A DNA stretch of 64,000 bases. Origin: a virus. The position numbers and the translations under genes were made by a program. The notes beneath the pieces were generated by a model. That model was not told the origin of the DNA. It did not search any database and saw only the letters and a program-made list of their open reading frames with translations. Location of the stretch: positions 14,383 through 78,382 of IMG/VR virus record IMGVR_UViG_3300050821_017219. One strand, 5' to 3'. Shown piece by piece: positions 9,471 through 56,374 of this stretch; positions within the stretch are counted from its first letter, which is position 1; every line of letters begins with the position of its first letter.

Positions 9471-10110
9471 TCACAATAATAGCAGATTTGATCGACCATG
9501 TCGGCAGATCGCCAAAGTTGTCCGGCTGGATGAAGTCGTGGTCGACCTGAACACCGTCGAGCCAAACATCGAGGGGGTAGCCTTGGACGTTGCAGAAGCC
9601 TCGCTGCTCCGGCGTAGGCACGTTCGACCCTGACTTCCAATAGCGCGTCATCTTCAGCGCGTGAAACCACTGCGCCGCCGTCAGAATCGACTGGAAGCCG
9701 ACGTAGACGCCCGGCTGAAACCCTGCGGCGGCAACGGCGTCAAACCAGGCGTTGGCGTAGACGATGACGTCGAGACTTGAGCATTCCAGCGAGACGCCTT
9801 CGATGTCACACCAGAGAGTCGTTCCAGCGGCGAAGCCGGCGCGTTGGGCGAAGTTGGCGAGGTTCATCCCGTCGAGCGCGCCCATACCGGCGTTGGGCTT
9901 CCAGGGAGGGTAGCGCACATGCCCCGCGCCCATGATCGCCAAACCGGCGTCGATAATGACGTTGAATTCGGCGGGTTGCACGTCGCGCGCGTAGCGAATG
10001 ACGAAATCGACGCCGTCTGATTTGAGTTTTTGACAAATCTCCGCCGTCAAGACGGTGTTGCAGTCGATGCCCTTCGCGCCGGGTCGGGCCAATGTTGCGA
10101 TGGCTGTCAT
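9463..10110 (-). CDS. DUF1906/GH25-like glycoside hydrolase, putative endolysin
   Basis: GIDCNT...GVDFVIRY...TLWCDIEG...GFQPGVYVG TIM-barrel pattern of Rv2525c-like peptidoglycan hydrolases. Confidence 0.78.
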   Translation of the reverse strand: MTAIATLARPGAKGIDCNTVLTAEICQKLKSDGVDFVIRYARDVQPAEFNVIIDAGLAIMGAGHVRYPPWKPNAGMGALDGMNLANFAQRAGFAAGTTLWCDIEGVSLECSSLDVIVYANAWFDAVAAAGFQPGVYVGFQSILTAAQWFHALKMTRYWKSGSNVPTPEQRGFCNVQGYPLDVWLDGVQVDHDFIQPDNFGDLPTWSIKSAIIVNA

Positions 10111-10343
10111 GACACCTTCTCGAATGACACCTTCTCGAAGAGCCCGAGCGCGATCTCAATGTCTTCGACGAGGGTCGCTGGGGTATTCGTCAAGTCAGTT
10201 TCGTCGAACCAAAACCACTGCGGGTCATCATTGACCCAAACGCAGACGCCGCACTTCTCATCCCAGAGAAACAAACCGTGGCGCCGCTCGCCAGGCGGAA
10301 ATTTGGCCGTCAGAAGACGAAGAAACTCGTAGGCGTTTGTCAT
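10107..10343 (-). CDS. Hypothetical protein
   Basis: ATGA-coupled on both sides; start MTNAYEF. Confidence 0.55.
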   Translation of the reverse strand: MTNAYEFLRLLTAKFPPGERRHGLFLWDEKCGVCVWVNDDPQWFWFDETDLTNTPATLVEDIEIALGLFEKVSFEKVS

Positions 10344-10573
10344 TTCCCCAACCAATGGCTGATCCAGCCAGCCGCAATGAGAACTCCACCCGTCACCTCG
10401 ACGGTCTTCGCGAGGCGCGCCGCCTTCTCGTCGGCGACGCATTGAATTTTGTCAGCATCTGTCACTTGCGGATTGTTGAGGCAGGGCAAGAACGCACCCT
10501 TGCGCAGCGTCAGAAGCAGACCGGTTCCACCAACAACGGCGCCACCGATGAGCAGAGCCGTCGACACGCGCAT
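10340..10573 (-). CDS. Small membrane protein (2 hydrophobic segments)
   Basis: LLIGGAVVGGTGLLL and GGVLIAAGW. Confidence 0.6.
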   Translation of the reverse strand: MRVSTALLIGGAVVGGTGLLLTLRKGAFLPCLNNPQVTDADKIQCVADEKAARLAKTVEVTGGVLIAAGWISHWLGK

Positions 10574-11070
10574 CAGACAGGCTTGCCGGCGTTCGCCGCG
10601 ATGTTCGTCGCGAGGTTGACCAGGATAAGCGCGCCCAATCCGATGCCCGCCGTCGCGAAGCCGACGTTGCGATTGGCGGGGGAGACCAGACCGACGACGA
10701 AGCCGCCGAGCGCCGTCGCACCGACGCCGACGCTGCCCCCACCGACTGCTCCGCCGAGGATGTCGACGGGCTTCGCCATCGCCCCTCCGAACGCGCCGAG
10801 ACCCCCGCCGACCGCGGCGCCGAGACCGAGGTAGCCGAGGGCGCCACCGATGGCGCTGTTGCTGGTAGGGTTGGCGTAGGCGAGACCGCGGTCGCGACGA
10901 CGAGAAAGTCGGTGAGACATGTTTCGCTTCTTTTTCTGCTGCTTTGACGCTGCTTTGCGTTGAATGCGGTAGGCGATGGCTGCGGCTTGCGCGGGTGGGT
11001 AGCCGTCGCGGCGAAGGGTCGCGATGTTGCGGCTTCGGGTAGCGTCGCTTGAGCCTCGGAGGAGAGGCAT
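10573..11070 (-). CDS. Basic N-terminal domain + NP motif + Gly-zipper membrane protein (putative virion protein)
   Basis: MPLLRGSS..RNIATL..GYPPAQAAAIAY phage-type small domain, RRRDRGLAYANP, three Gly-rich hydrophobic helices. Confidence 0.65.
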   Translation of the reverse strand: MPLLRGSSDATRSRNIATLRRDGYPPAQAAAIAYRIQRKAASKQQKKKRNMSHRLSRRRDRGLAYANPTSNSAIGGALGYLGLGAAVGGGLGAFGGAMAKPVDILGGAVGGGSVGVGATALGGFVVGLVSPANRNVGFATAGIGLGALILVNLATNIAANAGKPV

Positions 11071-11151
11071 GCGTCTACTCTAGCAGCGACGTCGATTCGG
11101 CGGTAGAGTCAAGTAGTAGACATGCGCCGTCAGACGAGACGTTGCTGAGAC

Positions 11152-11889
11152 ATGCTTGACTTCCCCGCCGCCGCCGCTGCACTCTGGGCGATCACCGCTG
11201 CGACGGGGGTAAAGCCCGAGCATCTGTTGCCGCCGTTGTTTTTGGAGAGCGGATTCGATCCGAGCATCCCGAATGCGGCAGGGCAGCCATTTTATGGGAT
11301 CAACCAGGCATCGACGCAGCTGATCTCCACCTATGCCGGAGTCGATCCGCAGACGTATCTGACGTGGCCGGCGTCACAGCAGCTCTCGACGGTCGTCAAG
11401 GGAATGATCGCAGACATCGTCCACCGGTACGGTCCGATCCGAAGTGCGACCAGAATGTATCAAGCGAATTTCCTGCCAGCGACGCTACCGACCGCGCGAC
11501 AGCTTTCGGATGTTCTGACGTCGCCGCCGTCACCCTTCTACAATGCCAACTCGGGACTCGACGCGAACCACGACGGCGCCATTACCCTCGGCGACCTCGC
11601 GGTAAAGATGACGCAGATGGCGCATCGCCCACAGGTGCAGCAGGCGATTCGCGACACCTACGCGGCGCGTGACGGCGCAACCGCTTCGGCGTCAGCTGCG
11701 GCATCGCCGACGGACATCAACGAGATCGTCTACGGCGACGACTTCAGCTTCATGCAGCAAAATCCGACGCTACGAAACGCGTTGGTCGTTGCTGGCATCC
11801 TCGCGGTTGGCGGCGGTGTCATCTACGCCATCGAGACGCGGCGGTTGGATCGATTTATTCTACCGAAGCGAAACCGACGTCGCCGTTGA
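11152..11889 (+). CDS. Lytic transglycosylase (lysozyme-like) with C-terminal TM anchor and basic tail
   Basis: LFLESGFDP (catalytic Glu), FYGINQ, YNANSGLDANHDGAIT; TM LVVAGILAVGGGVIYAI followed by KRNRRRR. Confidence 0.78.
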   Translation: MLDFPAAAAALWAITAATGVKPEHLLPPLFLESGFDPSIPNAAGQPFYGINQASTQLISTYAGVDPQTYLTWPASQQLSTVVKGMIADIVHRYGPIRSATRMYQANFLPATLPTARQLSDVLTSPPSPFYNANSGLDANHDGAITLGDLAVKMTQMAHRPQVQQAIRDTYAARDGATASASAAASPTDINEIVYGDDFSFMQQNPTLRNALVVAGILAVGGGVIYAIETRRLDRFILPKRNRRRR

Positions 11890-11922
11890 ATCGATTCATC
11901 TAAAAGAATCTGAGAATCACAA

Positions 11923-13476
11923 ATGGCCGGAACACTCATCGTTCGTCGAGCTCGCGTCGTCACCAACGTCGGCTCGGGTAGCGGCAACGGCGCAACCGGC
12001 GCAACTGGACCGGGCGGAGGCGCGACTGGACCGACGGGGGCGACAGGTGCAACCGGGGCCGTCGGCGCATCAGGTGCCACGGGTGCTTTCGGTGTCACCG
12101 GCGCTACGGGGCCGACCGCACGCACGCCGCTTGGCGCAGTCAGATTCATCGATCCATCCAACTCATCTGGCCTGGCGTCAGACAGCAACAACGGCGCAAC
12201 CAACGTAACGCCAATTCTGACGACAGCGCATCTCAATAACCTTCTGTTCTTCAAATCGCTGACGGCCAATACGACGATTACGTATATGAGCGACGATCTT
12301 AGCGGCGTTGGGTTGGATTATTCAACGATGGCGTTGGGCAATTTCAACTTGACGTTTCAGATGACGCCGGTCGTTACGCATACGGGTGGAACGCTCAACG
12401 CCGGCACGGTCGCGATCAATCCGTTGGCGGCGTCTGGCGGTCAACGCCAAGTCGTTCATACTTCCGACGTTGTGACGTTCAATCCGTTTGTCTTTACAGG
12501 ATTGGGCGGAGCGTCGGCGCATCCACAACGACTCGTCGCGACGAGTGGAGGCGACGTCAATACTGGCGCGTGGATCGTCTCAGCAACAACCCCAGCTTCG
12601 CCGTCGATGTCTCGGTCAATCACGCCTGGTGGAACCAACGGCAATCTAACGATTGGCGACACCTACAAGATTCAGCGTGGGGGGATCATCAACGTCACGC
12701 AAGGCCAACCTCCCACACAAGACGCCGGGCCGTCTGGAGGTGGCGGTGGTCTAGTGTTCTTCAACGACGCCGCCTTTGGCCTAACGAGCTGGGGCATCGG
12801 AGGTATACAATACGCCCGATGTAGCTTTGAGAATTCACTTGTCGTTGCTGCGGGTCTTACCGATTGCTTCGTCGGCGCTGGTATTATCGAGATTCTACCG
12901 ATTGGATCTATCTCGATGACAGCCGGTGTTCTTGTGACGACTATCTTCGATTTACTTCATTCGTCCATTAGTTTTGCTGACGATACGTACATCACCGGAT
13001 CAGCCTTTATTCTTTCGGGCAACGTCTATGGTAGCGTAACGGCTCTGCCAGGTAGTGGTAACGGGATTCAAATCCAAGATATGACGAACCCTACCGGCGC
13101 GCTCATCGTTTTGACCGCCATCCCGTTTGCGAATCAGACGGGGTCGCCGTCGAACCCGCTCATCTGGGGAAACGGTAACGTCGGACCGGGTATCACGATC
13201 GGACCGGGAGCGTGTATCACGGTGGCTGACGAGGTTGGGGTTGTACCGAGCGTCACCGGAACCGGCGGAGACTTCGCATTCATCGCCGAAAATAGCGGAC
13301 CGCTTGTGACGGTAGCGCGCGCTTGGAACAACGCGACGGGCGCCTACACGGAAGCGGGGGGCGTTGCGACCAGAACGACGACCTGGGCGCATTTCGCTGC
13401 TAGTATCTCCCCCGGTGGCGGTTTTCTCTTTCAAGCGCATAACGTAGCGACAGCAGCGTCAATCATTGCGGTCTGA
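11923..13476 (+). CDS. Collagen-like fibre/spike protein with beta-rich head
   Basis: Short GAT tract, then FIDPSNSSGLASDSNNG..T.PILT motif typical of beta-helix adhesin starts. Confidence 0.7.
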   Translation: MAGTLIVRRARVVTNVGSGSGNGATGATGPGGGATGPTGATGATGAVGASGATGAFGVTGATGPTARTPLGAVRFIDPSNSSGLASDSNNGATNVTPILTTAHLNNLLFFKSLTANTTITYMSDDLSGVGLDYSTMALGNFNLTFQMTPVVTHTGGTLNAGTVAINPLAASGGQRQVVHTSDVVTFNPFVFTGLGGASAHPQRLVATSGGDVNTGAWIVSATTPASPSMSRSITPGGTNGNLTIGDTYKIQRGGIINVTQGQPPTQDAGPSGGGGGLVFFNDAAFGLTSWGIGGIQYARCSFENSLVVAAGLTDCFVGAGIIEILPIGSISMTAGVLVTTIFDLLHSSISFADDTYITGSAFILSGNVYGSVTALPGSGNGIQIQDMTNPTGALIVLTAIPFANQTGSPSNPLIWGNGNVGPGITIGPGACITVADEVGVVPSVTGTGGDFAFIAENSGPLVTVARAWNNATGAYTEAGGVATRTTTWAHFAASISPGGGFLFQAHNVATAASIIAV

Positions 13477-19584: not shown

Positions 19585-19654
19585 TTGCAGAAACGTCTAC
19601 GTGACCGATCTCACAAACAGCCACGGTTTTATAGCTCAGCCGGAAAGCCGCCAG

Positions 19655-20014
19655 ATGAAGACCGCCAAGCACTACGCCGACCTTCTCGTCAACAACGTCA
19701 CAAAAACGGTGGCGGCGCCGACCATCGAAGACTGGCGCGCCGAAGCCGAAAAAATCTTCGCCTTCATTCTGTTCCAACCGCAGCATCGGCCCAACATTCG
19801 CGTCAACGAGCAGATCATCGCTACGACGGTCATCTACATCGACAGCGTCGGCAACAAGTGGGGCGAGATCGAGACGGCAGAAGCGATTCGTCGCGCGAAG
19901 GCGTTAGGGTTGTCACTCGTCGAGATCAACCCGCGCGCGTCGCCACCGGTCTGCAAGGCGATCAAGTGGCCCTACAGAAAAAAGCCGACCGAACCACCGC
20001 CGGAGATCGTATGA
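19655..20014 (+). CDS. Protein containing only the translation initiation factor IF3 N-terminal domain
   Basis: IRVNEQI.ATTV.YID..G...G.....EA...A...GLSLVEINPRASPPVCK matches the IF3-N consensus RINE.I...VRLID..G...G......AL..A...GLDLVE..P.A.PPVCK. Confidence 0.8.
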   Translation: MKTAKHYADLLVNNVTKTVAAPTIEDWRAEAEKIFAFILFQPQHRPNIRVNEQIIATTVIYIDSVGNKWGEIETAEAIRRAKALGLSLVEINPRASPPVCKAIKWPYRKKPTEPPPEIV

Positions 20015-20322: not shown

Positions 20323-23300
20323 CGAAGGAATGGTTTGAAGGCGTCACGCGAGAATTCGGCATGCCGGGCCGCGCGGAGGAACGCATCCGCCGATGCCCTA
20401 GAACGCCGGGTTGGTACATCGCCGAGCTCGAGTTCGCTTGCTGCGGCGTCGGTGGGGCCGCCCACCTGATCCCTATCGGCGCGTGGATCTACGTCGCCGA
20501 CGATGACGGATACGTTTGCTGCGAGAATCATCCGCCTTACGGCGGGTTTCCAGTACGTCGATGAACTACGTCGTCAAAGACGAGCACAACCGCTACCACC
20601 GCGAGGTGCACGAGCTGCGCGGGAAGCGTTGGCATCGCCGCTTCGAGTGGGTCACGTCGCGGCTCGAAGCGACGGTCTTCACGACTTACACGGCGGCGAA
20701 GTTTCGGCGCGACAGCCTCTACACGACGGCGGCGATTTTCGTCGTCGAGCTGACGTGAATAGAAGCGCGGCGGGTGACGTCTAACGAGGCGGAGGCTGAG
20801 TCTTCGATGAAAACAGAGCGCAACTACGAGACCGAGAAGGCTGCGCATGAAAAGACACGTCTGGAGCGCAACGACGCCCAGAAGCGCGCGCAAAGCCTGA
20901 TCGGAACCGTCAGAGGCCTCGAAGCGAAGGTGAAGCGTCTCGAAGAGCAGAACTTGCGGCAGGAAAAATTGATCGCTGGTCTCGAAAGCGGAGAGAGACG
21001 TGAGTTTCAGCAGCGATGCCGCCTTCTAGATCAACTTCGACAACTAGTGACGGAGGCAGACGACCGATGACTGAGCCGCTCCGGTGTGATTTCTGCAGGC
21101 GCACGGATGGTGGGCCATTCGCTGAAAAGACGAGGCGCGGGCGTATTTTGAAGCAGGCTGACTTCCCGTGGATCATCTGCAAGCGTTGCTGCGACGCGGC
21201 ATCGAGGTCAAGTGGGGACCGACGTACACATTCAAGGTGGAGCCATGAACGACGAAGACAAGAAGCTGATCGAAGAGGCGGAGCGACTCGACGCGGAAGC
21301 GACGCCGGGGTGGGCTAGCTATCCAGTGGGGTTCTGCGGGTACGCCTACGAAACCGTTTGGGCGAAAAACGTAGACGACGAACCTCTGTTTGAATCGTAC
21401 AGCCAACCCGACACGCGCTTCGTCGTCGCCGCTCGTACGCTGCTGCCTCAGCTCGCGAAGCGTCTGCGCGAAGCGTTGAACGTTCCCGACGTTCCGCCGG
21501 AGCCGCCGAAGCTGCCGGAGCCGCTCGTCGACGGCTACTACTGGGTCCGCCTCCCTAGCGACGCGCCGATCATCGCCGAGCGCGAAACGTATGGCGGACG
21601 CGCTCACTGGTTCCATTTCGGTGCCGATGGTTCTGACAACGTCGAACCGCTGTTCGGCCCACTGCAGCCACCCGCCGTCACAAACACGTCGCCGATTGTT
21701 CCATGGCCTGTCGATCTACCTCCGCGTTTCAATGGCGGAGTTCAATGCGATGCCCTCGAAGGCCCGTGCGCATGCGGCGCGTGGCACTCTAAGGTCACAA
21801 ACGTCACGAAATAACAGCCAGATTTGACGGAGCGACCAAAATGTCTCATCATCGACTCAACGATCGGCGACGCGTCGTGGCGGATGTCGGTCTCGCGCTT
21901 CCGTCGCCCCCCTCGCCTAGCCGCCAGGGGGGCGACGGTTTCTCAGGCGCAGACGTCAAGATGCCGTTGACTCCGCCAGCGGCAATCTACGTCACGACGA
22001 TGCGTCTCGTGGGCGGCGAAGGCGGCGTCTGGGTTTGGTTCAACGTCGAGGTGCCATTGTGATGCGCCACGGCTACTTCCTTCCCGGGCGCGGTCTCTTC
22101 GGCGACATCGACCTCGCTGTTGATGCGCAAACGTTCTGGTCCCTAAGCCCAGCGGGGGACTTCCTCTGGAAGCACCTCGGCCACTACGACGGCGCTTCGA
22201 TATGGATCACCAATGACGGCCGAACCACCATCCGTTTGTGCCTCCAAGACTTCTTCAGCGAGAAGTTCCGCGTCGAGGTTCGCGACTGGAGTGGTATCAG
22301 TTGGGAGCGCGCGCGATGAAACACTCGCCACTCGTCGGCGACTCCGTCAGCATCACTCGGGGCGTCTCCCTCGTCTGCCCATTCTGCGGCGGTACCGTCG
22401 ACATGGGCGACCTCTCCTGTGGTGGCGTTGGCGCGATCCATACGTTCCCCACCTGCGACACGTTCGATCGTCTCACCGTCGACGAGTTTGCCTACGCCTG
22501 CCGCATCGCCATCGAAGCGACGGTGAAGGCGGAAAAAGCATCGTGATCGATCTTCATGAAGGCGTCGCCGAAATCTTCGCTGCGGCGCAACAAGACGACG
22601 GCGTCGACCACGGCGACCTTCGGTTCGACTCAGACACCGCGCGGAGCCTCACCTACGAAGCCGCTTTCATTGCGCAGGCGCGCCTCGCCGAAGGTGTCAC
22701 GCGATGGCGTTGCGCTACCTGCGGCGAGGAAGTAGAACAACGACCCGGCGTTCGTGTGGCGTTTCACATGGGAAACCTACGCGACTCGAACTGTGGCCGA
22801 CGAGAAGCGCCTAGAGACTTTCAAGAGACGCAAAATCGTCTTGCTGTCGCGCCCGCTTTGACTTACCGTAACTCCTCACGCTGACGCCGCCGCTTCGTGC
22901 CGCCGCGTCGGTAGCTACCGCGAGACTTGAAGTCGACGAAAATTCAATCGTCGAAAACCACGACTGAAAGGCGTTGCCGATGGCGTCGAAGTTTCGACAG
23001 ATTTCTGTGTCGTCTGTTCCCGACGATAATGATGGCGTCATCGATAGCGTCTACGCGCTCGATGAAGCCGGCGTCGTCTGGCTGTTCAACAACACCGACG
23101 AGCGGTGGGAGGCGCTCTCGAAGCAGCGGTATGTCGCTGGCGCGTCGAACGACGATGCCGGCGAAGACGAGGGGGAGTGATGCCACCGACAAAAGAAGAA
23201 GTTGCTGACGTTCAGGAAACTTGGTTCGGTTGGTTGCTGAAGGATGGTGGTTGATGCCATCTTACAACGACTGGCCGACGAACGACGAAGATTGGGCCTT

Positions 23301-23502
23301 CCGTCAACAGCTTCGTCTTCGCGACGCGCGATGGCAGCGGTTGGAGCCGACCTACAACGAGCTCGAAGCGGCGCTCAACAAGGCCACCGCCGAAATCATC
23401 GCGCTGAAGGCCGCGCACAAAGCCGCGATGGAGACGGCGCTAAAGGCGCAACAGGAATACTACGACGGGCAAGCAATCCACCAAGCCTCGTGGGGCGGCT
23501 GA
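20319..23502 (+). CDS. Cluster of about 10 small hypothetical genes (20319-20564, 20561-20758, 20807-21070, 21245-21814, 22062-22319, 22316-22546, 22543-22884, 22980-23180, 23254-23502)
   Basis: Consecutive start/stop-overlapping ORFs, several with CxxC pairs or coiled coils. Confidence 0.55.
21901..21943 (+). terminator. Intrinsic terminator-like hairpin
   Basis: Perfect 13-bp inverted repeat ccgtcgcccccct / aggggggcgacgg, 12-nt loop, followed by tttct; lies after the stop of 21245-21814. Confidence 0.5.
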
Positions 23503-24323
23503 TGCCCATCCCCTCTTCCGCGCTCGAGAACGATCCGTTCCTCCGCGTCTTGGTGATGGGACCACCGAAGCTCGGAAAGACGACCACCGCCATCACTACC
23601 TCCGAAGGCAAGACGCGCGTTCTGCTCTGCGAAGCCGACTCGGCGCTCTCCGAGGCCAAGCGCCGCAAGGGCAACTTCGACTTCGAGCGTTGCCTTAGCG
23701 ATAAAGCCTACGAGCAGATGACGACCTTCCTTGCGCAAGCGAAGGAGGACGCCAAATCCGGAAGCATCCAGAATCTTCTGATCGATCCGTTGAGCGACTT
23801 TGCGGATCGACTGTTGGCGCAGTCGCACAAACTCAACCTGACGAAGGGTGGAGAAGAAGACGGACGGCGCGCCTACCCGCAGTGCACCAAACGGCTGCTA
23901 CACTGCCTCGACCTCGCCTTTACTATTCCCTGCCACGTCATCGTCGTCTGCCACTACATCGACGTCGGCGGCCAAGAGTTACCCGGCGCGCTGGAAAAGA
24001 CCGGAGACGGCATCGTTCCTCTTCTTCCCGGGCAAGCACGCGCTCGCGTGGCGGCGAAGTTCAACGACGTCGTCTGGTTCGACATCGACAAGGCCGACAA
24101 CGAGAAGCGCATCTTCGTTACCGGCCCGCAAGGCGCGTGGGGGCCGGGATGCCGAAGTCTGAGCCGCTTCGCGATCCTGCCGGCCGACTTCACGAAGCTG
24201 ATCGAAACCTTCAAGACCGGTCTGCCGAAAAAGGCTGCGCCAACGACGACGCCAACGAATGGCGTTGCGAAGTCGCCGTTGAAATCGCCAACAAAACCGC
24301 AGCCGCCGCAGCCACGCAAATAA
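23502..24323 (+). CDS. AAA_24 family ATPase (Sak4-like recombinase/annealing protein)
   Basis: VLVMGPPKLGKTT, LLIDPLS, HVIVVCH; directly upstream of an SSB-like gene. Confidence 0.8.
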   Translation: MPIPSSALENDPFLRVLVMGPPKLGKTTTAITTSEGKTRVLLCEADSALSEAKRRKGNFDFERCLSDKAYEQMTTFLAQAKEDAKSGSIQNLLIDPLSDFADRLLAQSHKLNLTKGGEEDGRRAYPQCTKRLLHCLDLAFTIPCHVIVVCHYIDVGGQELPGALEKTGDGIVPLLPGQARARVAAKFNDVVWFDIDKADNEKRIFVTGPQGAWGPGCRSLSRFAILPADFTKLIETFKTGLPKKAAPTTTPTNGVAKSPLKSPTKPQPPQPRK

Positions 24324-39324: not shown

Positions 39325-40665
39325 GTGACAACGACGCCGCATTGGCCGCAGGTAGTGGTGCCGCGCCGTGTCGGTGTCGCCGGTCTGACCGATTTTGAGG
39401 CGCACTTCGCGTCCGACCCCAACTTTGCGTCGGCGTGGAACGATGTCGGTGGCCAGCTCCTCGCCGAAGGCGCTAGCAGCTCGCAGGTCGACCAAGCGAA
39501 GACGTGGTTCGTCAACGCCGTCGAGGGAGCTGTCCCTGGGGTAACCGGCGACCAGGCCATCGCCTCCGCGAAGCAGCTCGTGCTGCTTGGGCAGACGGTC
39601 ATGGGCGCCGTCGCTACGGTGCAAGGTCTTCTCCAGACCGTCGAAAGTGGGTCGGTCCCACAAATTACGCAGGCGTTTACCGGCGTCTTGATCAGCCTCG
39701 GCGTCGGCACTGGGTTAGTCTCGGCCGGTATCGGCGCGGCCATCGCGCTCGGCATCTCCGTCGTGTTGGCGGCGCTTCAAGACCTTGGATTTTTTACTAG
39801 CAACGCCCCTCCGACATTTGACATCCCTGGGTGCGGCAAGTGGTACTGGGTGCCGGACTACCTCATCGGATGCATGGGCGTTCAAGCGAAGGGCGGCACT
39901 GCCAACGATCCGCTCTTGACGCAACCCTTTCATGTCGCGCCGGGCTCCCCCAACTGGCGGACGTTCCCGGTGCCGGGCAACATCATCCCATACGTCGAAG
40001 GCGCGGACAAAGAATGGTACGTCCCTGGGTTGGGGATGGTTGGCCACTGGAAGGGCATCTTCATCGACTACGGCGCCGTCGATGCAAGCGATGGGCGGCG
40101 GCCGATCGATCGCGCGTTTCCGAATTTTCGGCAGCTCGAAGCGGACAGCGGACCGGGAGCAAGCGACTTCCAGCGCGCGTTCGGTGGCGCATGGCGAAGC
40201 AACGCGGAGTATGCGTTCAACGGGTTGAAGCCGCAGCCAGACGAACAGGTGCTGCTCCATACCATTCGATTGTGGAACCGTTCGCACGATGGCCCCGCAG
40301 TTACGCTCGATCAAAGCAACGCGACCTACGCCAATTCGCTCGTCGACGCCGCCGTCAACAACGTGATGTCGAGTGACATCGGTTTGCTGTCTGGCCAAAG
40401 CTTGCTCGTCAACGCCGGTGGGTTGAAAACCCAAACGCCACGTGTCGTCACGCTGCATCTAGGCGGTAGTTTCGATTCAGCGACGTCGCCAACAACCGGC
40501 CTTATGTCGTCGACGGGTGGAAAAATTCTCGCGGGTACAGCTGCAATCGGCGGCGCCGCACTGCTCGGAAGCGCGGCGTACGCCTTCGCAAAGAAAGAGA
40601 GCATCGGCGCCGTCTGGAAGAACGTCTTCAAGACGGTGACGAAACCTCTGAGAGGTGGAAGATGA
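39325..40665 (+). CDS. Membrane-associated putative virion protein
   Basis: N-terminal TTPHWPQ..VGVAG; internal and C-terminal hydrophobic helices. Confidence 0.7.
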   Translation: MTTTPHWPQVVVPRRVGVAGLTDFEAHFASDPNFASAWNDVGGQLLAEGASSSQVDQAKTWFVNAVEGAVPGVTGDQAIASAKQLVLLGQTVMGAVATVQGLLQTVESGSVPQITQAFTGVLISLGVGTGLVSAGIGAAIALGISVVLAALQDLGFFTSNAPPTFDIPGCGKWYWVPDYLIGCMGVQAKGGTANDPLLTQPFHVAPGSPNWRTFPVPGNIIPYVEGADKEWYVPGLGMVGHWKGIFIDYGAVDASDGRRPIDRAFPNFRQLEADSGPGASDFQRAFGGAWRSNAEYAFNGLKPQPDEQVLLHTIRLWNRSHDGPAVTLDQSNATYANSLVDAAVNNVMSSDIGLLSGQSLLVNAGGLKTQTPRVVTLHLGGSFDSATSPTTGLMSSTGGKILAGTAAIGGAALLGSAAYAFAKKESIGAVWKNVFKTVTKPLRGGR

Positions 40666-40988
40666 GACGAAGACACGGTCGTAGAAATCCTTCGACGCAA
40701 ACGACGACGCTGCTGATCGCCGGTGGCGGTTTGGCGCTGCTCGGCGTTGGCGTCTACCTCTTCACGAAGAAGCCAGCGGCGGCGACAACGACGACTGCGA
40801 TCACGGCGACGTCACCAAATTCTCGACCGTTCGGTGACCCCGCCAACACGTCGAGCGTCGCGTTCGCGTGCAACACCTGCTGGAAGCTGAACGCACTCGG
40901 CCATCCGACGCAGGCGACGGCGTGGTGCACGAAATGCACCGCCAACGGTGGGGTAGTACCGCAAAGCGCTGCTCAGTTGTATACTTGA
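40662..40988 (+). CDS. Small membrane protein (RRNP + TM + Cys-rich domain)
   Basis: MRRRHGRRNP, TM LLIAGGGLALLGVGVYLF, CxxC pairs. Confidence 0.7.
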   Translation: MRRRHGRRNPSTQTTTLLIAGGGLALLGVGVYLFTKKPAAATTTTAITATSPNSRPFGDPANTSSVAFACNTCWKLNALGHPTQATAWCTKCTANGGVVPQSAAQLYT

Positions 40989-45349: not shown

Positions 45350-47653
45350 ATGAGCGACTTCTCGCCTTCGCTGCAAAACGCGGCCGCCGCCGGTATCCCG
45401 ACGACGCGGCAGCCGTATCTCGACGGCAACGCTGGCGTTCGCCAGAGCCTCGAAGCGATGGCGCTGAAGATGCGCGAGGGCCGCGTTGATCCTGCGGTAG
45501 TCGGTTGGGCGGGTGGCGTTTTGAAGGATGCGGGGTTGGACGGTCGCGACGGCTTTCCGATCCGTCGTCAAGTCTCGGCGTTGCTCGAAGCGTTGCGCAG
45601 CCAAGTCATTTACGCGCCCGATGCGTACGGCGCTGAAGTCGTGTCGAGCGCGGCTGCAACGCTCTGTCTACGACCGAACCTCTGTCTTCACCGCGGCGAC
45701 TGTTTCCCGAGCGGGACGTTGCTTCTTCGAGAAGACTACGAGCTCGTTCCGATCGAAAAGATCAAGGTAGGCGAGCGAATCTGGGGGCTCGACGGTTGGA
45801 CGACCATCAAAGCGACCGCCTTCAAGGGCAACCTCGCCGTCGACGCGATCGAGATGAACAACGGCTCGACGATGTTTTTGACCGGCGAGCACAAGGTCTT
45901 CGTCGGGCGATGCAAACACGATCGGACGATCTGCCCGTCGTGCTATCCGGCGCTACGACGAGAGCGCTTCGAGCGGGTCTCTGTTGCGGACCTTCAAGAA
46001 GGAGAGGTTCTTCTTCAACCCGAGCGAATCGCCTTCGGCTCTGAAGAACCAGATCCCGGACGCATGTATATCGAAGGGCTGTACATCTCCGACGGTTGGT
46101 CGGAAGAAAACCGCTTCGCCATCTCCGGCAAGGACGGCTGTCGAAAAGAAGCGCAGAAGCACGAGGTCAAAGCGATCTGTGAGCGGCTCGGCATCCCGAC
46201 CTACTGGCACAAGAGGTACATCCGCATCAACGATGCCGCATGGGCCAATCGTCTAGCGCAGCGTGGAACGCGTGCACGCTTCAAGCACATCGAGACGCTC
46301 AACCTCAACGAAGCCGCCGCCGAAGCACTGCTCCGCGGGGTTATGGCCGACAGTACCGCGAACACGAACGGCCCCGGTCGAACATTCTCGACGACGTCTC
46401 GAGAGCTGATGGTTCAGATGCGCATCTTGCAGCGCATGTTCGGCGTATCGACGGGGCTCAAAATGTTGACCCCCGCGCAACACGGCGGCGTTGGAACGCA
46501 TAATCTGTGGCGTCTCGGCGTCCGAGCGACGAACGGCCGTACCGAAAAAACGCTGGCCGTGAAGTCGATCGACCGCGCCGTCCGAAAGGTTCCGTGTTGG
46601 GACATCCAGACGGAAGACCACTACGTCTACCTCGCCGAGCATGATGTGACGGTCTCCAACTGTGACGATCTCGCCGTCGCGCTTGGTTCTGCAACCCTTT
46701 CGTTGGGCATTCCGACCGTCATCGTGAAGCAAAACTTCGGCGGCGAAAATCAAGAGCATGTTCTCATCGCCTTCCAGGACGAGAACCAAGAGTGGACCTA
46801 CGCTGATCCCTCGACGAAGCTTCCCGTCGGTCGCGCACCGCAAGGTGCCGTCGATGAGATCTGGATCGACCCGATGGGGCCGGTTGGACCGATTCCAGAG
46901 GCTGGCGCTGAAATCGTCACGCTTGGATCTGCGATAGCGTCTTCGTTTTCGTCTGAGATTCATTCGCCAGTCGAAAGACGGATGCATTTCGCCGGCAACC
47001 ATTGGTGGCATCACGATGCGTCGGGTGTCTCTGTCTACGTCGACGACGCATGGCTTTCGACAGGTCTCTCTGGAATCCCTTCCGAAGTCGGCGTCGGCAC
47101 CATCTTCGGTGCGCCAACGGTCAACGAGATGATCGATTTCGCTTCGGTGGTCGGCGCCGAGATGAAAGACATCGGCGCGGTACCGACGACGTGCACCGGT
47201 TGGCCGAAAGACCCCGTCGGCTACCAAGCGTGGCTGATGGACATGCAAGACACGATGGCCGAGTTTCAGACGGCGAGCGACGCAGCGTTGGCGAAATTCA
47301 ACTCGACGTCGAAGTATCTGCGCGACTTCACGTCGGCACCGGAGGAAATGAACGCGCTCGCCGATGTGGCTCGACAAATCACCGACTTGGATCGCCGACT
47401 GCGCGCAGCAACGGGTGGCGCCGGTTGCTCGGCCCCGACCTACGCCGACGTGCAGCAACCCCAGGCTATCGATTGGGACCTGCAGGGCTATCAAGGCGCC
47501 GACTTCGCCGCGAAGGTCGTCGAAAACGCCGGCAAAAAAATCGCAGGCGCGGCGCAACCAGCGGGCATCGCGTTTGGTGGTCTCATCGTCGGCGCTGCGC
47601 TCGCCGTCGCCGGCTTGATCGTGTTGGACCACATGCTGCCGTCGCGTCGTTAG
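45350..47653 (+). CDS. Transglutaminase-like cysteine protease precursor with intein and C-terminal TM anchor
   Basis: Spliced extein gives RGD-CDDLAVALGS...EHVLI...WTYADPS (Cys-His-Asp triad); C-terminal TM followed by PSRR. Confidence 0.82.
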   Translation: MSDFSPSLQNAAAAGIPTTRQPYLDGNAGVRQSLEAMALKMREGRVDPAVVGWAGGVLKDAGLDGRDGFPIRRQVSALLEALRSQVIYAPDAYGAEVVSSAAATLCLRPNLCLHRGDCFPSGTLLLREDYELVPIEKIKVGERIWGLDGWTTIKATAFKGNLAVDAIEMNNGSTMFLTGEHKVFVGRCKHDRTICPSCYPALRRERFERVSVADLQEGEVLLQPERIAFGSEEPDPGRMYIEGLYISDGWSEENRFAISGKDGCRKEAQKHEVKAICERLGIPTYWHKRYIRINDAAWANRLAQRGTRARFKHIETLNLNEAAAEALLRGVMADSTANTNGPGRTFSTTSRELMVQMRILQRMFGVSTGLKMLTPAQHGGVGTHNLWRLGVRATNGRTEKTLAVKSIDRAVRKVPCWDIQTEDHYVYLAEHDVTVSNCDDLAVALGSATLSLGIPTVIVKQNFGGENQEHVLIAFQDENQEWTYADPSTKLPVGRAPQGAVDEIWIDPMGPVGPIPEAGAEIVTLGSAIASSFSSEIHSPVERRMHFAGNHWWHHDASGVSVYVDDAWLSTGLSGIPSEVGVGTIFGAPTVNEMIDFASVVGAEMKDIGAVPTTCTGWPKDPVGYQAWLMDMQDTMAEFQTASDAALAKFNSTSKYLRDFTSAPEEMNALADVARQITDLDRRLRAATGGAGCSAPTYADVQQPQAIDWDLQGYQGADFAAKVVENAGKKIAGAAQPAGIAFGGLIVGAALAVAGLIVLDHMLPSRR
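45701..46660 (+). mobile_element. Intein (320 aa) with LAGLIDADG-type endonuclease region
   Basis: Block A CFPSGTLL, block B LTGEHKVF, IEGLYISDG and LLRGVMAD blocks, block F VPCWDIQT, ends VSN|C. Confidence 0.9.
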
Positions 47654-47660
47654 GCGTCGA

Positions 47661-48125
47661 ATGATCATCGTCAAAGGGAAGGCAGTCAGCTTCGACATGG
47701 CGAACGGCGACGAAATCGATGCGCCAGCGCGCTCGGCGATGTTGCACGATCCGCGCGGCAAATTCTGGCGTCGAAATTCTATTCTTGTTGCGCCATTCAA
47801 ACGCGGCGGCGGTGGTGAAGTCGACGGCGACAGCGACTCGAAAGACTATCTCGGCCGAACGCATCTGACGCGCGTCGGTGATGTACCGCTTCCCCCGAAA
47901 GAGTTGTCGGCCTGGACGTACGAAGGCGAAGTGAGCGAGATTTGGTACACGCGTCACGGCGCAAAGTACGGCGGCAAGCGGTTCCGCCACGCGTTCAACA
48001 AGTCGTTGCTCGGCCGGCTCGTGAAGGGAACCGGCAAGGCGCGGCTGTACAGCCGTGGTAGTCTCTACCGATTGGAGCTACCGCGCGGCGCCATTGTCGA
48101 TGGGAGAGGATTTTTATGGCCGTGA
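47661..48125 (+). CDS. Basic hypothetical protein (putative virion/core protein)
   Basis: GEVSEIWYTR...KRFRHAF; located in the structural block. Confidence 0.6.
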   Translation: MIIVKGKAVSFDMANGDEIDAPARSAMLHDPRGKFWRRNSILVAPFKRGGGGEVDGDSDSKDYLGRTHLTRVGDVPLPPKELSAWTYEGEVSEIWYTRHGAKYGGKRFRHAFNKSLLGRLVKGTGKARLYSRGSLYRLELPRGAIVDGRGFLWP

Positions 48126-48637
48126 TCTGGAAGTCTGTCGTCGGTTACGAGGGGTTGTACGACGTCTCTGACGAAGGACAGATCCGGCGTGTGGCGCCGG
48201 GGCGACGTACACACCCCGGGCGTATCGTTGTCGGTGGCGTCTCGAAGGGGCGTTACCGCATCGTCAAACTCTATCGAGGAACGACGAAGAGCGACTTCCG
48301 CGGGTTCTCCGTTCACGGTCTCGTCGCGGCAGCCTTTCTTGGCCCGCGTCCGGAAAGGGGCGAGGTGAACCACAAGAACGGCATCAAGACGGACAACAGG
48401 CTCGAGAATTTAGAGTACACAACCCGCCTCGGAAACGCGCGCCACGCAGCAGTGAACGGGCTGCTCCGAAACGGCGAACGAGTCGTCGGCTCCAAGCTTA
48501 CGGCCGACAATGTTCGCTCCATCCGCGCTCTGTCCGCTTTTGGCGTTCCGAAGCGACGGATCGCGAAGATGTTCGGCATCGCGCATTCGACCACGCAAAG
48601 CATCATCGACCGTCGTTGGTGGAAGCACGTCGCATGA
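48116..48637 (+). CDS. NUMOD4-HNH homing endonuclease
   Basis: WKSVVGYEGLYDVSDEGQIR, VHGLVAAAFLG, VNHKNGIKTDNRLENLEY. Confidence 0.92.
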   Translation: MAVIWKSVVGYEGLYDVSDEGQIRRVAPGRRTHPGRIVVGGVSKGRYRIVKLYRGTTKSDFRGFSVHGLVAAAFLGPRPERGEVNHKNGIKTDNRLENLEYTTRLGNARHAAVNGLLRNGERVVGSKLTADNVRSIRALSAFGVPKRRIAKMFGIAHSTTQSIIDRRWWKHVA

Positions 48638-50166
48638 TCGATTATTCGCGCATGATTGACGCCAGCCGCAACGCGCCCGAACACGCGGCATCTGCGCCCG
48701 TCTTCTACGAAACAGCGAAGACGAAGACGCGCGCGCGTAGCCGTCGTTTGACAAAGCGCAAGAAACAAGCTTCACTTACAAAAGCGCGCGACCGGAAATC
48801 CACGAACCGTCGTCGTCGAAGCACCCCAGGGAAGGCTGCATCGATGGCAAAGCGAAGAATGTCGAGAAAGCAGCGCGCAGCGGCGCTGAAGAACCTCAAG
48901 AAGGCTCGCTCCGCCCGTCGGAGCAAAGCTTCTCGGCGCGGGATGCGCGTTCGGCTTCATCGGAAGTCGCCCCGTCGGCGCCGCTACATGACCGGCGGTG
49001 GTGTGAAGACGAAGCGTCGTCGTCGCCGCAAGGCCAAGCCGGAAGCAGAAGCAACACCGAAGCGTCGTCGGCGTAAGTCGGGCGGCAAGCGGAAGTCGGC
49101 CAAGCGAGTCGCGGCTGGCAAGAAGGCCGCTCGTACGCGCAAGCGCCGTCACTCCCGCAAGGGTGGCGCACCGAAACGCCGTCGTCGTCGGTCGCGCAAA
49201 GCCTCGGCGGCTCCCCGGCGGCGGCGTCGGCGTTCACGTCGGTCGTCTCCCCGTCGTCGTCGGCGCAGCCGCAAGACCGGTCGGGCGATGTCGATGCGAC
49301 TCCCCCGTCGGGCGCGCAAGGTCTACGTCGTCGCCGCCGAGAAGCGCCGTCGTCGTGGACGCGGCCGTCGTCGTCACGGCGCGATGGAAAATCCGCTCTC
49401 TGGCGTCGAGCTGTTCGTCGGAAGCCTCTTCGGGTTGACCGGCTTCGCCATCGGCGATCTCACCGACCGCCTCATCGCGACCCACGCGTTGACGTTGAAG
49501 AGCGCCGCGACCACCACCACGCCGGCCCTCTACGCCGACAACCCCCCGACGACCGGCAGCTACGCTGGCCTCTTCAATCCGACGGCGATCACTTCGCCGA
49601 TGAACCTCCCCCGATGGGCGAACGCGGTCGGTGCTCCGGCGCTGATCTTCACCGTCGCACACTTCGTCAAGTCGCCGGTCGCGCGCAGTTCGATGCAGTT
49701 CTTCGCCTTCGGTTACGGCGTCCGTGGTGTCGGCAAAGGCATCATGGACCTCATGGCCAAAGTGACGACCAGCTTCGGCCTCGGTCAGCGCCTCTACGAC
49801 GGCGAGATGCGAGCGCAGGTGCTCAAGGCCAACAGCGGCAGCAACCAAGCGGCAGCGCTTGCGAACTTGCCCGCCGCTGGCCTCGGTCAACCGGCTCGGC
49901 AATTGGCGGTAGCGCCTTGCGCCAATTGCGGCAATTGCGCGAAATGCAAAGCAGCAGCGGCACCGAGCGGCGTGGGTTGGCCTTCGCAGCCCCGCGAAAT
50001 CACCAGCCAGTCGACGCAGACGCAACCGCAGGCTCCCGTATCCGCGACTGCCCCACCGCGTCAGCCCCCGCCTCCCCCCAACGCTCCTCCGATTCGACAG
50101 CAGTCGTTTCTCACCGGCGCAGCGGCGCATCCTACCTACAAGAAGTGGGGCGGCTACGATTTGTGA
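48634..50166 (+). CDS. Arg/Lys-rich protamine-like protein with C-terminal hydrophobic domain (putative DNA-condensing core protein); alternative start 48844
   Basis: About 180 aa dominated by R/K/S with SPRRRR-type motifs, then AMENP, hydrophobic helices and CxxCxxCxxC. Confidence 0.75.
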   Translation: MIDYSRMIDASRNAPEHAASAPVFYETAKTKTRARSRRLTKRKKQASLTKARDRKSTNRRRRSTPGKAASMAKRRMSRKQRAAALKNLKKARSARRSKASRRGMRVRLHRKSPRRRRYMTGGGVKTKRRRRRKAKPEAEATPKRRRRKSGGKRKSAKRVAAGKKAARTRKRRHSRKGGAPKRRRRRSRKASAAPRRRRRRSRRSSPRRRRRSRKTGRAMSMRLPRRARKVYVVAAEKRRRRGRGRRRHGAMENPLSGVELFVGSLFGLTGFAIGDLTDRLIATHALTLKSAATTTTPALYADNPPTTGSYAGLFNPTAITSPMNLPRWANAVGAPALIFTVAHFVKSPVARSSMQFFAFGYGVRGVGKGIMDLMAKVTTSFGLGQRLYDGEMRAQVLKANSGSNQAAALANLPAAGLGQPARQLAVAPCANCGNCAKCKAAAAPSGVGWPSQPREITSQSTQTQPQAPVSATAPPRQPPPPPNAPPIRQQSFLTGAAAHPTYKKWGGYDL

Positions 50167-50324: not shown

Positions 50325-51692
50325 ATGGCTACGCAAATCGTTTCTCGACCCAGTCAGTTCAAGACGCGAGCGAAGATGCTCTCGCGCGCCGAGCGCGGCA
50401 TCGCTCTCGTCAAGGCCGTCGGAACCGGTCTTCCCATCGACGCGGCGAAGATCAAGGCGTCAGGGAATGACCCCCGGCGCGGCATGGGCGCCGTCCTCGA
50501 CCTCATCAAGGCGTCGAAGGAAAACCCCTGGTGGAACATGGACGTCGTCGAGCAGGTCCGTTGGACCCTCGGCGGACCCCAGACCAATCAGTCGATCACC
50601 GAAAACTTCGGTGCGACCATCGACTTGTTCGCTTCGGGGAAGTCGCCGGTCGACATCGACTTCGTCGAGACGACCATGGCGCAGCCTGGTCAGACGCAGA
50701 CCTTCTTCGTCGCCTGCTATGTCGGCTTCCACCTCGAGCCCGACCCCATGACGTTCACCCTCCGAGGGAACGCGTGGACGCATCCGACCGCGGCGGTCGC
50801 GAAGCCCCCGTCTCCCGACGTGTTCAGCGCGAACGACGTCGCCAACGGCGCGCTCGGCCCCGCCTTCGCCGGCACGCCGACGCAGACGATGCTTCCCGCG
50901 ATCATGGAGCACGGCTGGTGGCTCAACCGAGCCTTCTGGGAGCTCGTGCGCGCCTACAACTTCCGATGGAAGATCGGCCAGCACATCAACATCATGGACG
51001 AGCAGTTGCGCCACACGGCGTACATGCCCCCGAACGCTCAGGAAGGCAGCGCGTCGAGCTCGGAAGTGGATCCGTTCAATCTCATCAATCAGATGAACAC
51101 CCGCTACGACACGCTCGGAACGGCGCTCGACTTCCTCCCGATCGACTTCTTGAGGATCGGATCAGTCGGAAGCACGACCGTCAACAACGGCCGCTTCACG
51201 CCGAGCCGTGACTTCGATACCGTCGGCGTCACCTACGGTGGTTCCGACCTCCGAAGCATGCTGCGCGGCAACAGCGAGTTCCGCCAGCTGTGCGTTCCCT
51301 ACGTGATCGAGCCGGGCGTTCCCATCGGCATCTTCCTCCAGGAATGCGACAGCGTTCAGGCGGACATCATGCGCGCGCTGCTCAGCATCTCGCAGGTCGG
51401 CGGAAACTTCGGCGGATCGATTCCCCCGGCAGTCACCCCCGACGGCAACATCAACGGCGGCTTCACGAGCACGGGCGCCGCGGTCATGTTGGAGCGCACC
51501 CTCGACGGTGCAGACGTCCCCCAGCAGATCGACACCCAGCGCGTCATCTACAAGAGCGGCGTCGGCAAGATCACGCTGCCGATCAAGGGCTTCGAGGTCA
51601 CGAAGGATTGGTACAACCAACTCTCTTCGGATTCGGACATCCGAGACATCGTGCTCTCCGACTGCGGGATGCGATTCGCGGCCTACGGTTGA
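50325..51692 (+). CDS. Putative major capsid protein (non-HK97, possibly jelly-roll)
   Basis: Very strong C/G-ending codon bias by eye, GGAG RBS, beta-rich, follows the core-like protein; no HK97 signature seen. Confidence 0.5.
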   Translation: MATQIVSRPSQFKTRAKMLSRAERGIALVKAVGTGLPIDAAKIKASGNDPRRGMGAVLDLIKASKENPWWNMDVVEQVRWTLGGPQTNQSITENFGATIDLFASGKSPVDIDFVETTMAQPGQTQTFFVACYVGFHLEPDPMTFTLRGNAWTHPTAAVAKPPSPDVFSANDVANGALGPAFAGTPTQTMLPAIMEHGWWLNRAFWELVRAYNFRWKIGQHINIMDEQLRHTAYMPPNAQEGSASSSEVDPFNLINQMNTRYDTLGTALDFLPIDFLRIGSVGSTTVNNGRFTPSRDFDTVGVTYGGSDLRSMLRGNSEFRQLCVPYVIEPGVPIGIFLQECDSVQADIMRALLSISQVGGNFGGSIPPAVTPDGNINGGFTSTGAAVMLERTLDGADVPQQIDTQRVIYKSGVGKITLPIKGFEVTKDWYNQLSSDSDIRDIVLSDCGMRFAAYG

Positions 51693-53327: not shown

Positions 53328-53977
53328 GATGGTCGGCCGCTCGCCAAGGTCGCCGTAGCTATTATCGCGCCGAGAGCTCGAAGGGCTATTACCGCATCGA
53401 ACATCGCCCGAGCGGTTGGGTCGTCGACATGACTATACACAACGGGCGTGATCATGTCATCGGAACATTCTCATCACTTGCCGGAGCCAAAACAGCTGCC
53501 TCGCAGCATGATCGAGGGTTTATGAGTCGTCGTCGTAGAAGCCGTCGTCGCCACCACGCTGCAGAAGCGAACCCCATCTCGTCGTCGACCAAGAAGTGGC
53601 TTGTCATCGGTGGCCTCACCGCAGTTGCCGGAGTCGGTCTCTACCTCTACATGAAGAAGATGTCGGCCTTGACGCAGATGCCGATGCCTGCGGCGCTACC
53701 GCCCGGTACTGCGCCGATCAACCTAACGCTGTCGCCCGGCAACCTGTCGGCGGTCACACTCAGCGCCGGCAACAAGGCCGCGTTGAGCCTCTTCGCGCCG
53801 CAGGGCTCAACGTTGCAGGTGATGAACTGGAACCCCGTCGCGCCGCTCGCTCCGGCGACGACGTCGAACTACGAAGTCGTCGCGGCGACGCCAGGCAACT
53901 CGACCGTCACCGCGACCTACAAAGACGCGTCGGGCGCAACGCAGACGGCGACCATCCCCATCGTCGTCACCGCTTAG
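53324..53977 (+). CDS. Small domain + Arg-rich + NP motif + TM + Ig-like protein (alternative start 53522)
   Basis: GGAGG-GTG start; SRRRRSRRRHHAAEANP, TM WLVIGGLTAVAGVGLYLYM. Confidence 0.65.
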   Translation: MRWSAARQGRRSYYRAESSKGYYRIEHRPSGWVVDMTIHNGRDHVIGTFSSLAGAKTAASQHDRGFMSRRRRSRRRHHAAEANPISSSTKKWLVIGGLTAVAGVGLYLYMKKMSALTQMPMPAALPPGTAPINLTLSPGNLSAVTLSAGNKAALSLFAPQGSTLQVMNWNPVAPLAPATTSNYEVVAATPGNSTVTATYKDASGATQTATIPIVVTA

Positions 53978-55847: not shown

Positions 55848-56066
55848 ATGCTGAAATATGAAGTGTGGGCATGCGATCATTGCGGCAAGGAAGCGAAGAC
55901 GCCGCGGGGCCTGCCCGAAGGTTACCTTTGCGTCGAGCTGTACGTGCACGATGCGAACACCAACGCCCTTGTCGTCGAAGGAGGGCAGAGCAAGCGCAAA
56001 CTCGTCTGCTCGAAAGAGTGCGCCAGCGACATCTGCGCAACGCTGATCAGATCGGCGCGACAATGA
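55848..56066 (+). CDS. Small zinc-finger protein
   Basis: CDHC...CSKEC. Confidence 0.55.
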   Translation: MLKYEVWACDHCGKEAKTPRGLPEGYLCVELYVHDANTNALVVEGGQSKRKLVCSKECASDICATLIRSARQ

Positions 56067-56374
56067 GCTTCACACCCCTCGGTGACCGTATCTTCGTCAA
56101 AGCTGACGCAGCCGCGACGAAAGTCGGCAGCCTCTTCATTCCGGCGTCAGCCGCCGAGAAGCGACGCAAGGAAGTCGGTTGCACCGGCATCGTTCGTTTC
56201 ATCGGACCGGGCATGCTCACCAAAGACGGTGGCCGGTGGCCGATGCCCGACGTGCGCATCGGCGACCGCGTCATCTACCTCGACCAACCATGGCCGACGG
56301 TGAAGATCGGCGACGAGGAGCTGGTCTCTCTGCGAGATGACGGTCTGCTCGCCGTCGTCGAAAACGACACCTGA
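56063..56374 (+). CDS. groES: GroES/Cpn10-like co-chaperonin
   Basis: FTPLGDRIFVK...GSLFIPASAAEK...GIVRFIGPG...DVRIGDRVIY...IGDEELVSLRDDGLLAVVE. Confidence 0.85.
   Translation: MSFTPLGDRIFVKADAAATKVGSLFIPASAAEKRRKEVGCTGIVRFIGPGMLTKDGGRWPMPDVRIGDRVIYLDQPWPTVKIGDEELVSLRDDGLLAVVENDT

Follow-up and report, generated by a model that had tools for sequence, protein, structure and literature searches.

In adenoviruses, the Arg-rich proteins pVII and pX/Mu, which are encoded in the structural module, condense the double-stranded DNA (dsDNA) genome inside a virion with a jelly-roll capsid. Protein-mediated genome condensation is known so far from adenoviruses, baculoviruses, large eukaryotic DNA viruses and an archaeal virus; the dsDNA genomes of the phages studied are motor-packed and neutralised by small cations. 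Protamine-like proteins and SPRR tails are small and free-standing, or form tails on a capsid protein. PRD1, PM2 and Sphaerolipoviridae/P23-77 have genomes of 10 to 31 kb, the DNA being packaged by an FtsK/A32-type ATPase, and we know of no membrane-containing tailless phage with a protamine-like protein. Protamine-like proteins occur in baculoviruses and asfarviruses, and evidence that basic proteins play much of a part in neutralising phage DNA is lacking (PMC3281028). In the Portogloboviridae, Sulfolobus polyhedral virus 1 (SPV1) combines a jelly-roll shell and a lipid layer with circular, protein-condensed dsDNA in a VP1 nucleoprotein core (PMC8459092). Here we describe a gene at positions 48,634 to 50,166 of a 64,000-nucleotide stretch of viral DNA (the window), which comprises bases 14383 to 78382 of IMG/VR virus record IMGVR_UViG_3300050821_017219, a single contig of 78,382 bp. 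Its predicted product joins a protamine-like polycationic arm to a hydrophobic helical domain.

In the literature we found neither this protein nor its virus group described, and no report of such a protein compacting or anchoring the DNA of a cultured bacterial virus. Judged from the sequences compared here, what appears to be new is the union of a protamine-like condenser with a conserved hydrophobic domain, and its presence in a lineage of bacterial viruses without a recognisable packaging motor. We read the product as a DNA-condensing polycation of the virion, equipped with a hydrophobic anchor, in an apparently tailless virus of the jelly-roll type, and put the probability of this reading at about 0.5; DNA binding, presence in the virion, membrane insertion, co-assembly and any cleavage are properties that we infer. 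If the reading is true, protein-mediated condensation would extend to bacterial viruses of at least 70 kb. Arm and hydrophobic domain can be separated and are easily expressed, which makes the idea directly testable.

The protein matched no Pfam-A family at E <= 0.01, no PHROG and no NCBIfam family, and the Pfam, PHROG and NCBIfam scans yielded no family for its neighbours. A search with its C-terminal domain (C-domain) returned 79 homologous clusters at 90% identity, all relatives being metagenomic and many lying on contigs of 60 to 95 kb. In a profile search of 1.84 billion representatives, 406 relatives were found at E <= 1e-3 and 151 at E <= 1e-30. The C-domain is about as conserved among relatives (38 to 73% identity) as the 455-amino-acid (aa) capsid candidate encoded downstream (40 to 83%), and even relatives of only about 40% identity have an arm of polycationic composition.

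The reading frame is open from 48616 to 50166 on the + strand. The ATG at 48634, preceded by GGTGGAAG, is the likely start codon because the relatives begin with the same M-x-DY-L...PEHAA...PVFYE motif. Long spurious open reading frames (ORFs) are common in GC-rich DNA, and several overlap the focal gene on both strands; the R-rich stretch might thus be an untranslated artefact of base composition. This explanation is hardly credible. Upstream DNA is available for 36 related loci; in all of these, about 200 to 360 codons ahead of the C-domain are open in frame and basic (R+K, 0.29 to 0.49), and in most of them the DY-L motif comes first. In a contig of about 90% identity, the arm indels listed are net multiples of three. 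The GC content at third codon positions (GC3) is 0.72, comparable to that of the virus's other genes, and relatives share the N-terminal motif. Furthermore, R and K swap across relatives (R, 7 to 39%; K, 7 to 29%), an exchange that requires at least two base changes per codon. As Arg and Lys substitute for each other, charge is conserved at the level of the protein and not of the DNA sequence. Taken together, the comparisons indicate that the focal gene is a real, translated gene and no chance ORF. Short contigs from three soil metatranscriptome studies also map to the gene and two match the window letter for letter, with DNA carry-over possible as the source of these contigs. A scan for promoters and terminators around the gene gave nothing exceeding shuffled sequences.

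An initial annotation, made from the sequence letters, had described this ORF as a condensing core protein. The strings and the Cys pattern that it quoted are all present in the translation of 48616 to 50166 (in HRKSPRRRRY, RRSSPRRRRRS, GRGRRRHGAMENP and CANCGNCAKC), as are its GLG/GVG motifs (in FGLGQ, AGLGQ, RGVGK and SGVGW). It had named conserved R-richness and synteny in homologues as a check, and both were found: the arm is basic in 36/36 loci and a six-gene order is kept. Translation of the R-rich stretch in this frame, on which the annotation depended, was likewise upheld by the homologues (36/36 open, with R/K interchange).

The basic tract, which had been estimated at about 180 aa, measures about 221 aa (residues 28 to 248). 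It consists of 49% R+K and carries a net charge of +105 (+103 for residues 1 to 248). Among the arms of 114 relatives, the median length is 219 aa, with R+K at 0.38 and D+E at 3.6%, and the median net charge is +73.5 (range, 30 to 123). [ST]P[RK][RK] motifs occur 71 times in these 114 arms, compared with 17.5 +/- 4.3 in shuffles, an approximately 4-fold excess among relatives that are not independent; at least one motif is present in 52 of the arms, and the focal arm holds three. By the features compared (a very high R/K content, few acidic residues and minor-groove motifs above chance), the protein belongs with the protamine-like or SPKK-type condensers, which form a functional class and not a homology family. 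Conserved short modules within the arm (RLTK, plus KQRAAALKNLKKAR or GRLTKAEIKKAGGIKQAW) show that it is not pure low complexity. Runs of CGTCGTCGTCG, made of CGT codons, recur six times in the arm (48634 to 49377); CGT accounts for 39% of its Arg codons but for 16% genome-wide, and these runs probably drive changes in arm length. By calculation, about 1,520 chains would be needed to neutralise all 156,764 charges of the DNA. A comparison of the basic arm with Protein Data Bank (PDB) sequences returned a sole match at E 0.097, which is attributed to chance.

The arm is followed by a junction and a predicted three-helix hydrophobic domain. An AlphaFold2 (AF2) model (m352c35859672), built from 46 sequences, has a predicted local distance difference test score (pLDDT) of 80 to 97 over residues 255 to 415. 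In this model a Gly-rich helix 1 (residues 257 to 282) is followed by a short hairpin loop, helix 2 (325 to 342) and helix 3 (348 to 380), with more helices up to about residue 411. Invariant positions of the domain comprise E259, D275, D278, R279, Y310, N315, R327, G367 and K368, the first four of which bound helix 1. Membrane insertion of this modelled domain is plausible. In helix 1, the best 19-residue window has an apparent free energy of about +3.6 kcal/mol and the Kyte-Doolittle (KD) maximum is 1.63, both of which are marginal values. Structural comparison of the C-domain with the PDB (VIA-align 2) gave weak, generic matches to transmembrane (TM) helices (Z <= 6.8), the best being those of major facilitator superfamily (MFS) transporters and photosystem I subunit L. 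The C-domain had no match in BFVD and no lead in the ESM Atlas, and no PDB relative of the protein was convincing by fold or by sequence. Further downstream, the CxxCxxCxxC cluster singled out in the initial annotation is present, but only its last two cysteines are nearly invariant in the family. The Pro/Gln-rich tail has low pLDDT.

The junction RRRHGAMENP with its following helix looks like the signal-anchor of small membrane proteins encoded by the same viruses. Proteins of this kind, beginning M-R-R-R-x-x-R-x-N-P and continuing into a Gly/Ala-rich TM helix, are encoded at 40662 to 40988 and 53414 to 53977 of the window, and the related genome L002 has four copies (at about 4184, 4624, 13766 and 14172). 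The structural block also encodes many small proteins, each with one Gly/Ala-rich TM helix.

The virus genome of 78.4 kb in which the gene lies is complete, with a direct terminal repeat of 97 bp at the contig ends, a CheckV completeness of 100% and a GC content of 60%. A six-frame search of it for Terminase_6N, Pox_A32 (PF04665) and FtsK_SpoIIIE (PF01580) gave nothing, the last two at E <= 1. Terminase_6N was likewise absent from three related genomes (the records behind L002, L003 and L008), which are 92 to 100% complete by CheckV. Scans of 97 ORFs, viewed as the best 25 of 38 Pfam families and the best 25 of 81 PHROG families, displayed no terminase, portal, HK97 capsid or tail family; 'tail fiber' PHROG families matched several ORFs. 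The ten largest proteins of the structural block had no PHROG match. Walker A motifs are confined to replication genes, namely, those encoding the D5 primase, an AAA_24 protein and a Dda-like helicase.

The mechanism that we propose is conditional on these predictions. The disordered arm of about 220 residues would bind the 78-kb dsDNA electrostatically, neutralising and compacting it, probably assisted by the SPKK/SPRR-type minor-groove motifs. The three-helix domain would fix the arm to a lipid or protein layer beneath the capsid, so that DNA would be gathered at the assembly site and enclosed while the shell forms, with no pumping by a motor. A wider extension of this idea is tentative: in a clade of bacterial viruses of 60 to 140 kb from soil and freshwater, a membrane-anchored polycation, perhaps of two nested sizes, might condense the genome while a jelly-roll shell closes round it, enclosing dsDNA without a motor. 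Such a concurrent assembly route, resembling those of adenoviruses and SPV1, has not been described for bacterial viruses.

By analogy, the protein resembles pVII/Mu and P6.9 in function and lies outside those families. Like the adenovirus proteins, it is Arg-rich and encoded in an apparent structural module with a cysteine-protease-like gene nearby. However, a Pfam scan found no sequence similarity to pVII or Mu, the arm of about 220 aa is fused to a three-helix hydrophobic domain, the protease candidate is transglutaminase-like and not adenain, and the host is likely bacterial. With baculovirus P6.9, the asfarvirus protamine-like protein, histone H1 and the hepatitis B virus (HBV) core tail it shares an extreme Arg content and [ST]P[RK][RK] motifs, but it differs from protamine-like proteins in being 510 aa long and in having a hydrophobic domain, a Cys pair and a Pro-rich tail. 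The design suggested here, a shell, a lipid layer and protein-condensed DNA, is that of SPV1, and one of the best structural matches to the 455-aa protein is a capsid chain of SPV1; this match is weak, SPV1 is a 20-kb archaeal virus and, to our knowledge, VP1 does not take the form of a polybasic tail attached to a membrane domain. The many small TM proteins beside the capsid genes, together with weak fold matches, recall PRD1, PM2 and Sphaerolipoviridae/P23-77, in contrast to which the six-frame search found no FtsK/A32-type ATPase in the focal genome.

Several points weigh against a DNA-condensing role. Under the positive-inside rule, a positively charged segment of a membrane protein stays cytoplasmic, and the arm (+103) is therefore expected on the cytoplasmic face. 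When a coated membrane patch buds as in PRD1, the cytoplasmic face comes to lie towards the capsid and not the DNA lumen, so that a cytoplasmic arm should face the capsid instead of the DNA. This leaves two options: the virus assembles unlike PRD1 and encloses its DNA at the cytoplasmic side of the membrane, or the partner of the arm is not the DNA. In addition, helix 1 is marginally hydrophobic and helix 2 less so, which leaves insertion not assured. The fold matches of the capsid candidate are weak (Z of about 5, Foldseek E > 1e-3), which makes the virion type tentative; tail charge does not track the length of the contig (rho 0.30, p 0.27); and a divergent packaging ATPase may be present, for example, the AAA_24 protein at 23244 to 24323. 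Because of the topology clash, the probability of DNA condensation is kept at about 0.5 and a role as capsid-to-membrane linker or scaffold is retained. In that case the arm would lie between membrane and capsid and bind the inner capsid surface or acidic lipids, not packaged DNA. The positive-inside rule as applied to the arm, a junction like the R-R-R-x-x-R-x-NP and TM signal-anchor of the small membrane proteins, and a cytoplasmic location of the capsid candidates, which have neither signal peptides nor TM segments, would all fit. However, some 100 positive charges and SPKK-type motifs far exceed the needs of a linker, and no packaging ATPase was found that would move DNA through a closed membrane, so this role seems rather unlikely.

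A role in genome delivery, as a pilot or ejection protein, is a minor possibility that overlaps with DNA condensation and does not exclude it. The protein would travel with the DNA; upon infection its Gly-rich helix would enter the host membrane, and the arm would accompany or shield the incoming DNA. A Gly-rich helix with acidic borders is a composition known from membrane-active viral peptides, which matches helix 1 bounded by the invariant E259, D275 and D278, and TM helix bundles are the only fold matches of the domain. Nothing specific for pore formation was seen, and an arm of this size and charge is better explained by bulk neutralisation. Finally, the protein could act inside the cell without entering the virion, where it would hold replicating viral DNA on the host membrane at sites of assembly, or compact the host nucleoid. 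A polybasic arm that is cytoplasmic and anchored in a membrane would be well suited to such tethering, but the gene has a fixed place, with a protease-like gene on one side and, on the other, the three beta-rich structural candidates that are most conserved, away from the replication block, which makes this explanation improbable. Between these alternatives, condensation of virion DNA remains our preferred reading. Of the original description as a condensing core protein, the real gene and the conserved polycationic arm joined to a hydrophobic helical domain have held, while the junction lacks a conserved cut motif. The statement that the protein is not typical of tailed phages agrees with a genome without recognisable tailed-phage genes or packaging ATPase; tethering of the genome on the viral membrane, proposed along with it, would need an assembly route other than that of PRD1.

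Cleavage at the basic/hydrophobic junction, which had been envisaged at maturation, is not supported, as a G-hydrophobic-G motif occurs there in only 4/46 relatives. Conserved candidate cut motifs lie C-terminal, at residues 415 to 418 and 446 to 448 and thus away from the junction. G-hydrophobic-G is found within LPxAGLG in 43/46 relatives and within GVGWPSxPRE in 35/46, both in flexible parts of the protein. The sequences therefore offer better candidates for release of the Cys/Pro-rich tail than of a free arm, should processing occur at all. The capsid candidate also has such a motif, G(L/M/F)G(S/A)ILDL, in 35/35 sequences (at about 50400 to 50500 of the window), and the motifs common to both proteins may be shared recognition or cut sites. 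Position P4 of the AGLG and GVGW sites does not fit the adenain rule, (M/I/L)XGG-X or (M/I/L)XGX-G; the neighbouring protease candidate is itself a marginal match, transglutaminase-like and not adenain. The features of the locus are listed in Table 1.

Table 1. Features of the focal gene and its neighbours, in window coordinates
Feature	Position	Strand	Basis or remark
Transglutaminase-like 767-aa protein with intein and strong C-terminal TM helix (residue 740)	45350..47653	+	Candidate protease of the module
154-aa protein	47661..48125	+	Always ahead of the focal gene in relatives (synteny; HNH/NUMOD4 insertion aside)
HNH/NUMOD4 homing endonuclease	48116..48637	+	Pfam HNH_3 (8.9e-12), NUMOD4; between the 154-aa and focal genes
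Focal gene	48634..50166	+	510 aa plus stop; polycationic arm and hydrophobic helical domain; ORF list, translation
N-terminal motif, residues 1-27 (M-x-DY...PEHAA...PVFYE), non-basic	48634..48714	+	Opens the ORF in most related proteins/loci
Polycationic arm, residues 28-248	48715..49377	+	Composition, [ST]P[RK][RK] motifs, CGT runs
Internal Met, residue 71 ('MAK')	48844..48846	+	Conserved; candidate second start
Junction GAMENP, residues 249-254	49378..49395	+	N253 and P254 nearly invariant; boundary contexts, alignment, motif tally
Three-helix hydrophobic domain (predicted)	49402..49773	+	AF2 model, invariant columns, hydrophobicity scans
LPxAGLG motif (LPAAGLG here), residues 412-418	49867..49887	+	Candidate processing/docking site
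Cys cluster CxxCxxCxxC (C429, C432, C435, C438)	49918..49947	+	C435 and C438 alone nearly invariant
GVGWPSQPRE (446-455) and Pro/Gln-rich tail, conserved end LTG...WG	49969..50163	+	Alignment consensus, motif tally
455-aa capsid candidate, beta-sandwich, jelly-roll-like	50325..51692	+	AF2, weak fold matches

Within the focal gene, the non-basic N-terminal motif is possibly a docking peptide. A nested, shorter product starting from the internal Met 71 is possible on sequence grounds. Many database gene calls begin at this codon, and a Shine-Dalgarno (SD)-like GGAG, GAGG or AGGA lies 4 to 16 nucleotides ahead of it in 15/21 related loci, compared with a background of 6.8% (binomial p of about 1e-13, for loci that are not independent). 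The window's own sequence ahead of Met 71 is weak in this respect, having only AGGGAAGG. Among the 150 best relatives, about 16 have the Met of MENP as their first residue and thus lack the basic arm; arm-less relatives in the library include P0211, P0219, P0220, P0227 and P0040, one of them on a 73.7-kb contig. These may be split forms, tail-less forms or gene-call artefacts. No SD-like motif was found ahead of the MENP Met in 22 loci.

In every related locus with flanks, six genes occur in the same order, encoding the transglutaminase-like protein, the 154-aa protein, the focal protein and proteins of 455, 249 and 283 aa, and this structural module, with its protease-like gene and beta-rich candidates, lies far from the replication block. 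The focal gene was correctly placed directly ahead of the capsid candidate, from which it is separated by 158 nucleotides. The intein of the 767-aa protein has Hint and LAGLIDADG matches; it is missing from most relatives, although L018 seems to carry one. The intein-less L001 homologue matched Transglut_core at E 2.6e-4 with 21.7 bits, below the cut-off of 23. For the 154-aa protein, the Pfam, PHROG and NCBIfam scans gave no family. The end of the HNH/NUMOD4 gene overlaps the focal start, and the same site is filled in L016, L024 and L034 and empty elsewhere. By sequence, this gene and the intein are identified as mobile insertions, with the endonuclease standing outside the module.

The 455-aa protein forms 270 clusters at >=50% identity. 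According to its AF2 model (pLDDT 74) and fold matches, it is a beta-sandwich and not an HK97 fold. Its capsid matches are weak (Z 4.4 to 5.2, Foldseek E > 1e-3) and mostly to jelly-roll capsid proteins, including satellite panicum mosaic virus (SPMV; Z 5.2, root mean square deviation [rmsd] 3.8, 122 residues aligned) and SPV1 chain 6oj0_Z (Z 5.1, rmsd 5.1, 122 aligned). Further weak matches were to HHIV-2, HCIV-1, P23-77 VP16 and PRD1 P3/P5, and the Foldseek/BFVD lists added CRESS, papilloma and parvovirus capsids, also weakly. The top VIA row is human furin (Z 5.5), which means that Z scores in this range are not specific for capsid folds. No relatives of this protein were found in two scans of 185,579 prokaryote genomes, and tblastn against 50,697 phage records gave no match. 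In sequencing runs, the share of sampled words was at most 0.11.

The virus is uncultured, from soil and apparently tailless. A bacterial host is likely because lipobox-type N-termini are seen in ORF translations; in L004, for instance, three neighbouring ORFs (genome positions 9763 to 12477) have lipoprotein-like N-termini with the lipoboxes LVAC, TAAC and LVAC. Families displayed in the 97-ORF scans included a PolA-UDG fusion, D5 primase, SNF2, Dda-like helicase and ThyX, as well as dNMP kinase, Dam, integrase, RadC, GroES and IF3_N. The GroES (Cpn10) homologue is encoded just past the structural block (55865 to 56374 of the window), and a protein consisting of the IF3 N-terminal domain only is encoded within the replication block (19601 to 20014).

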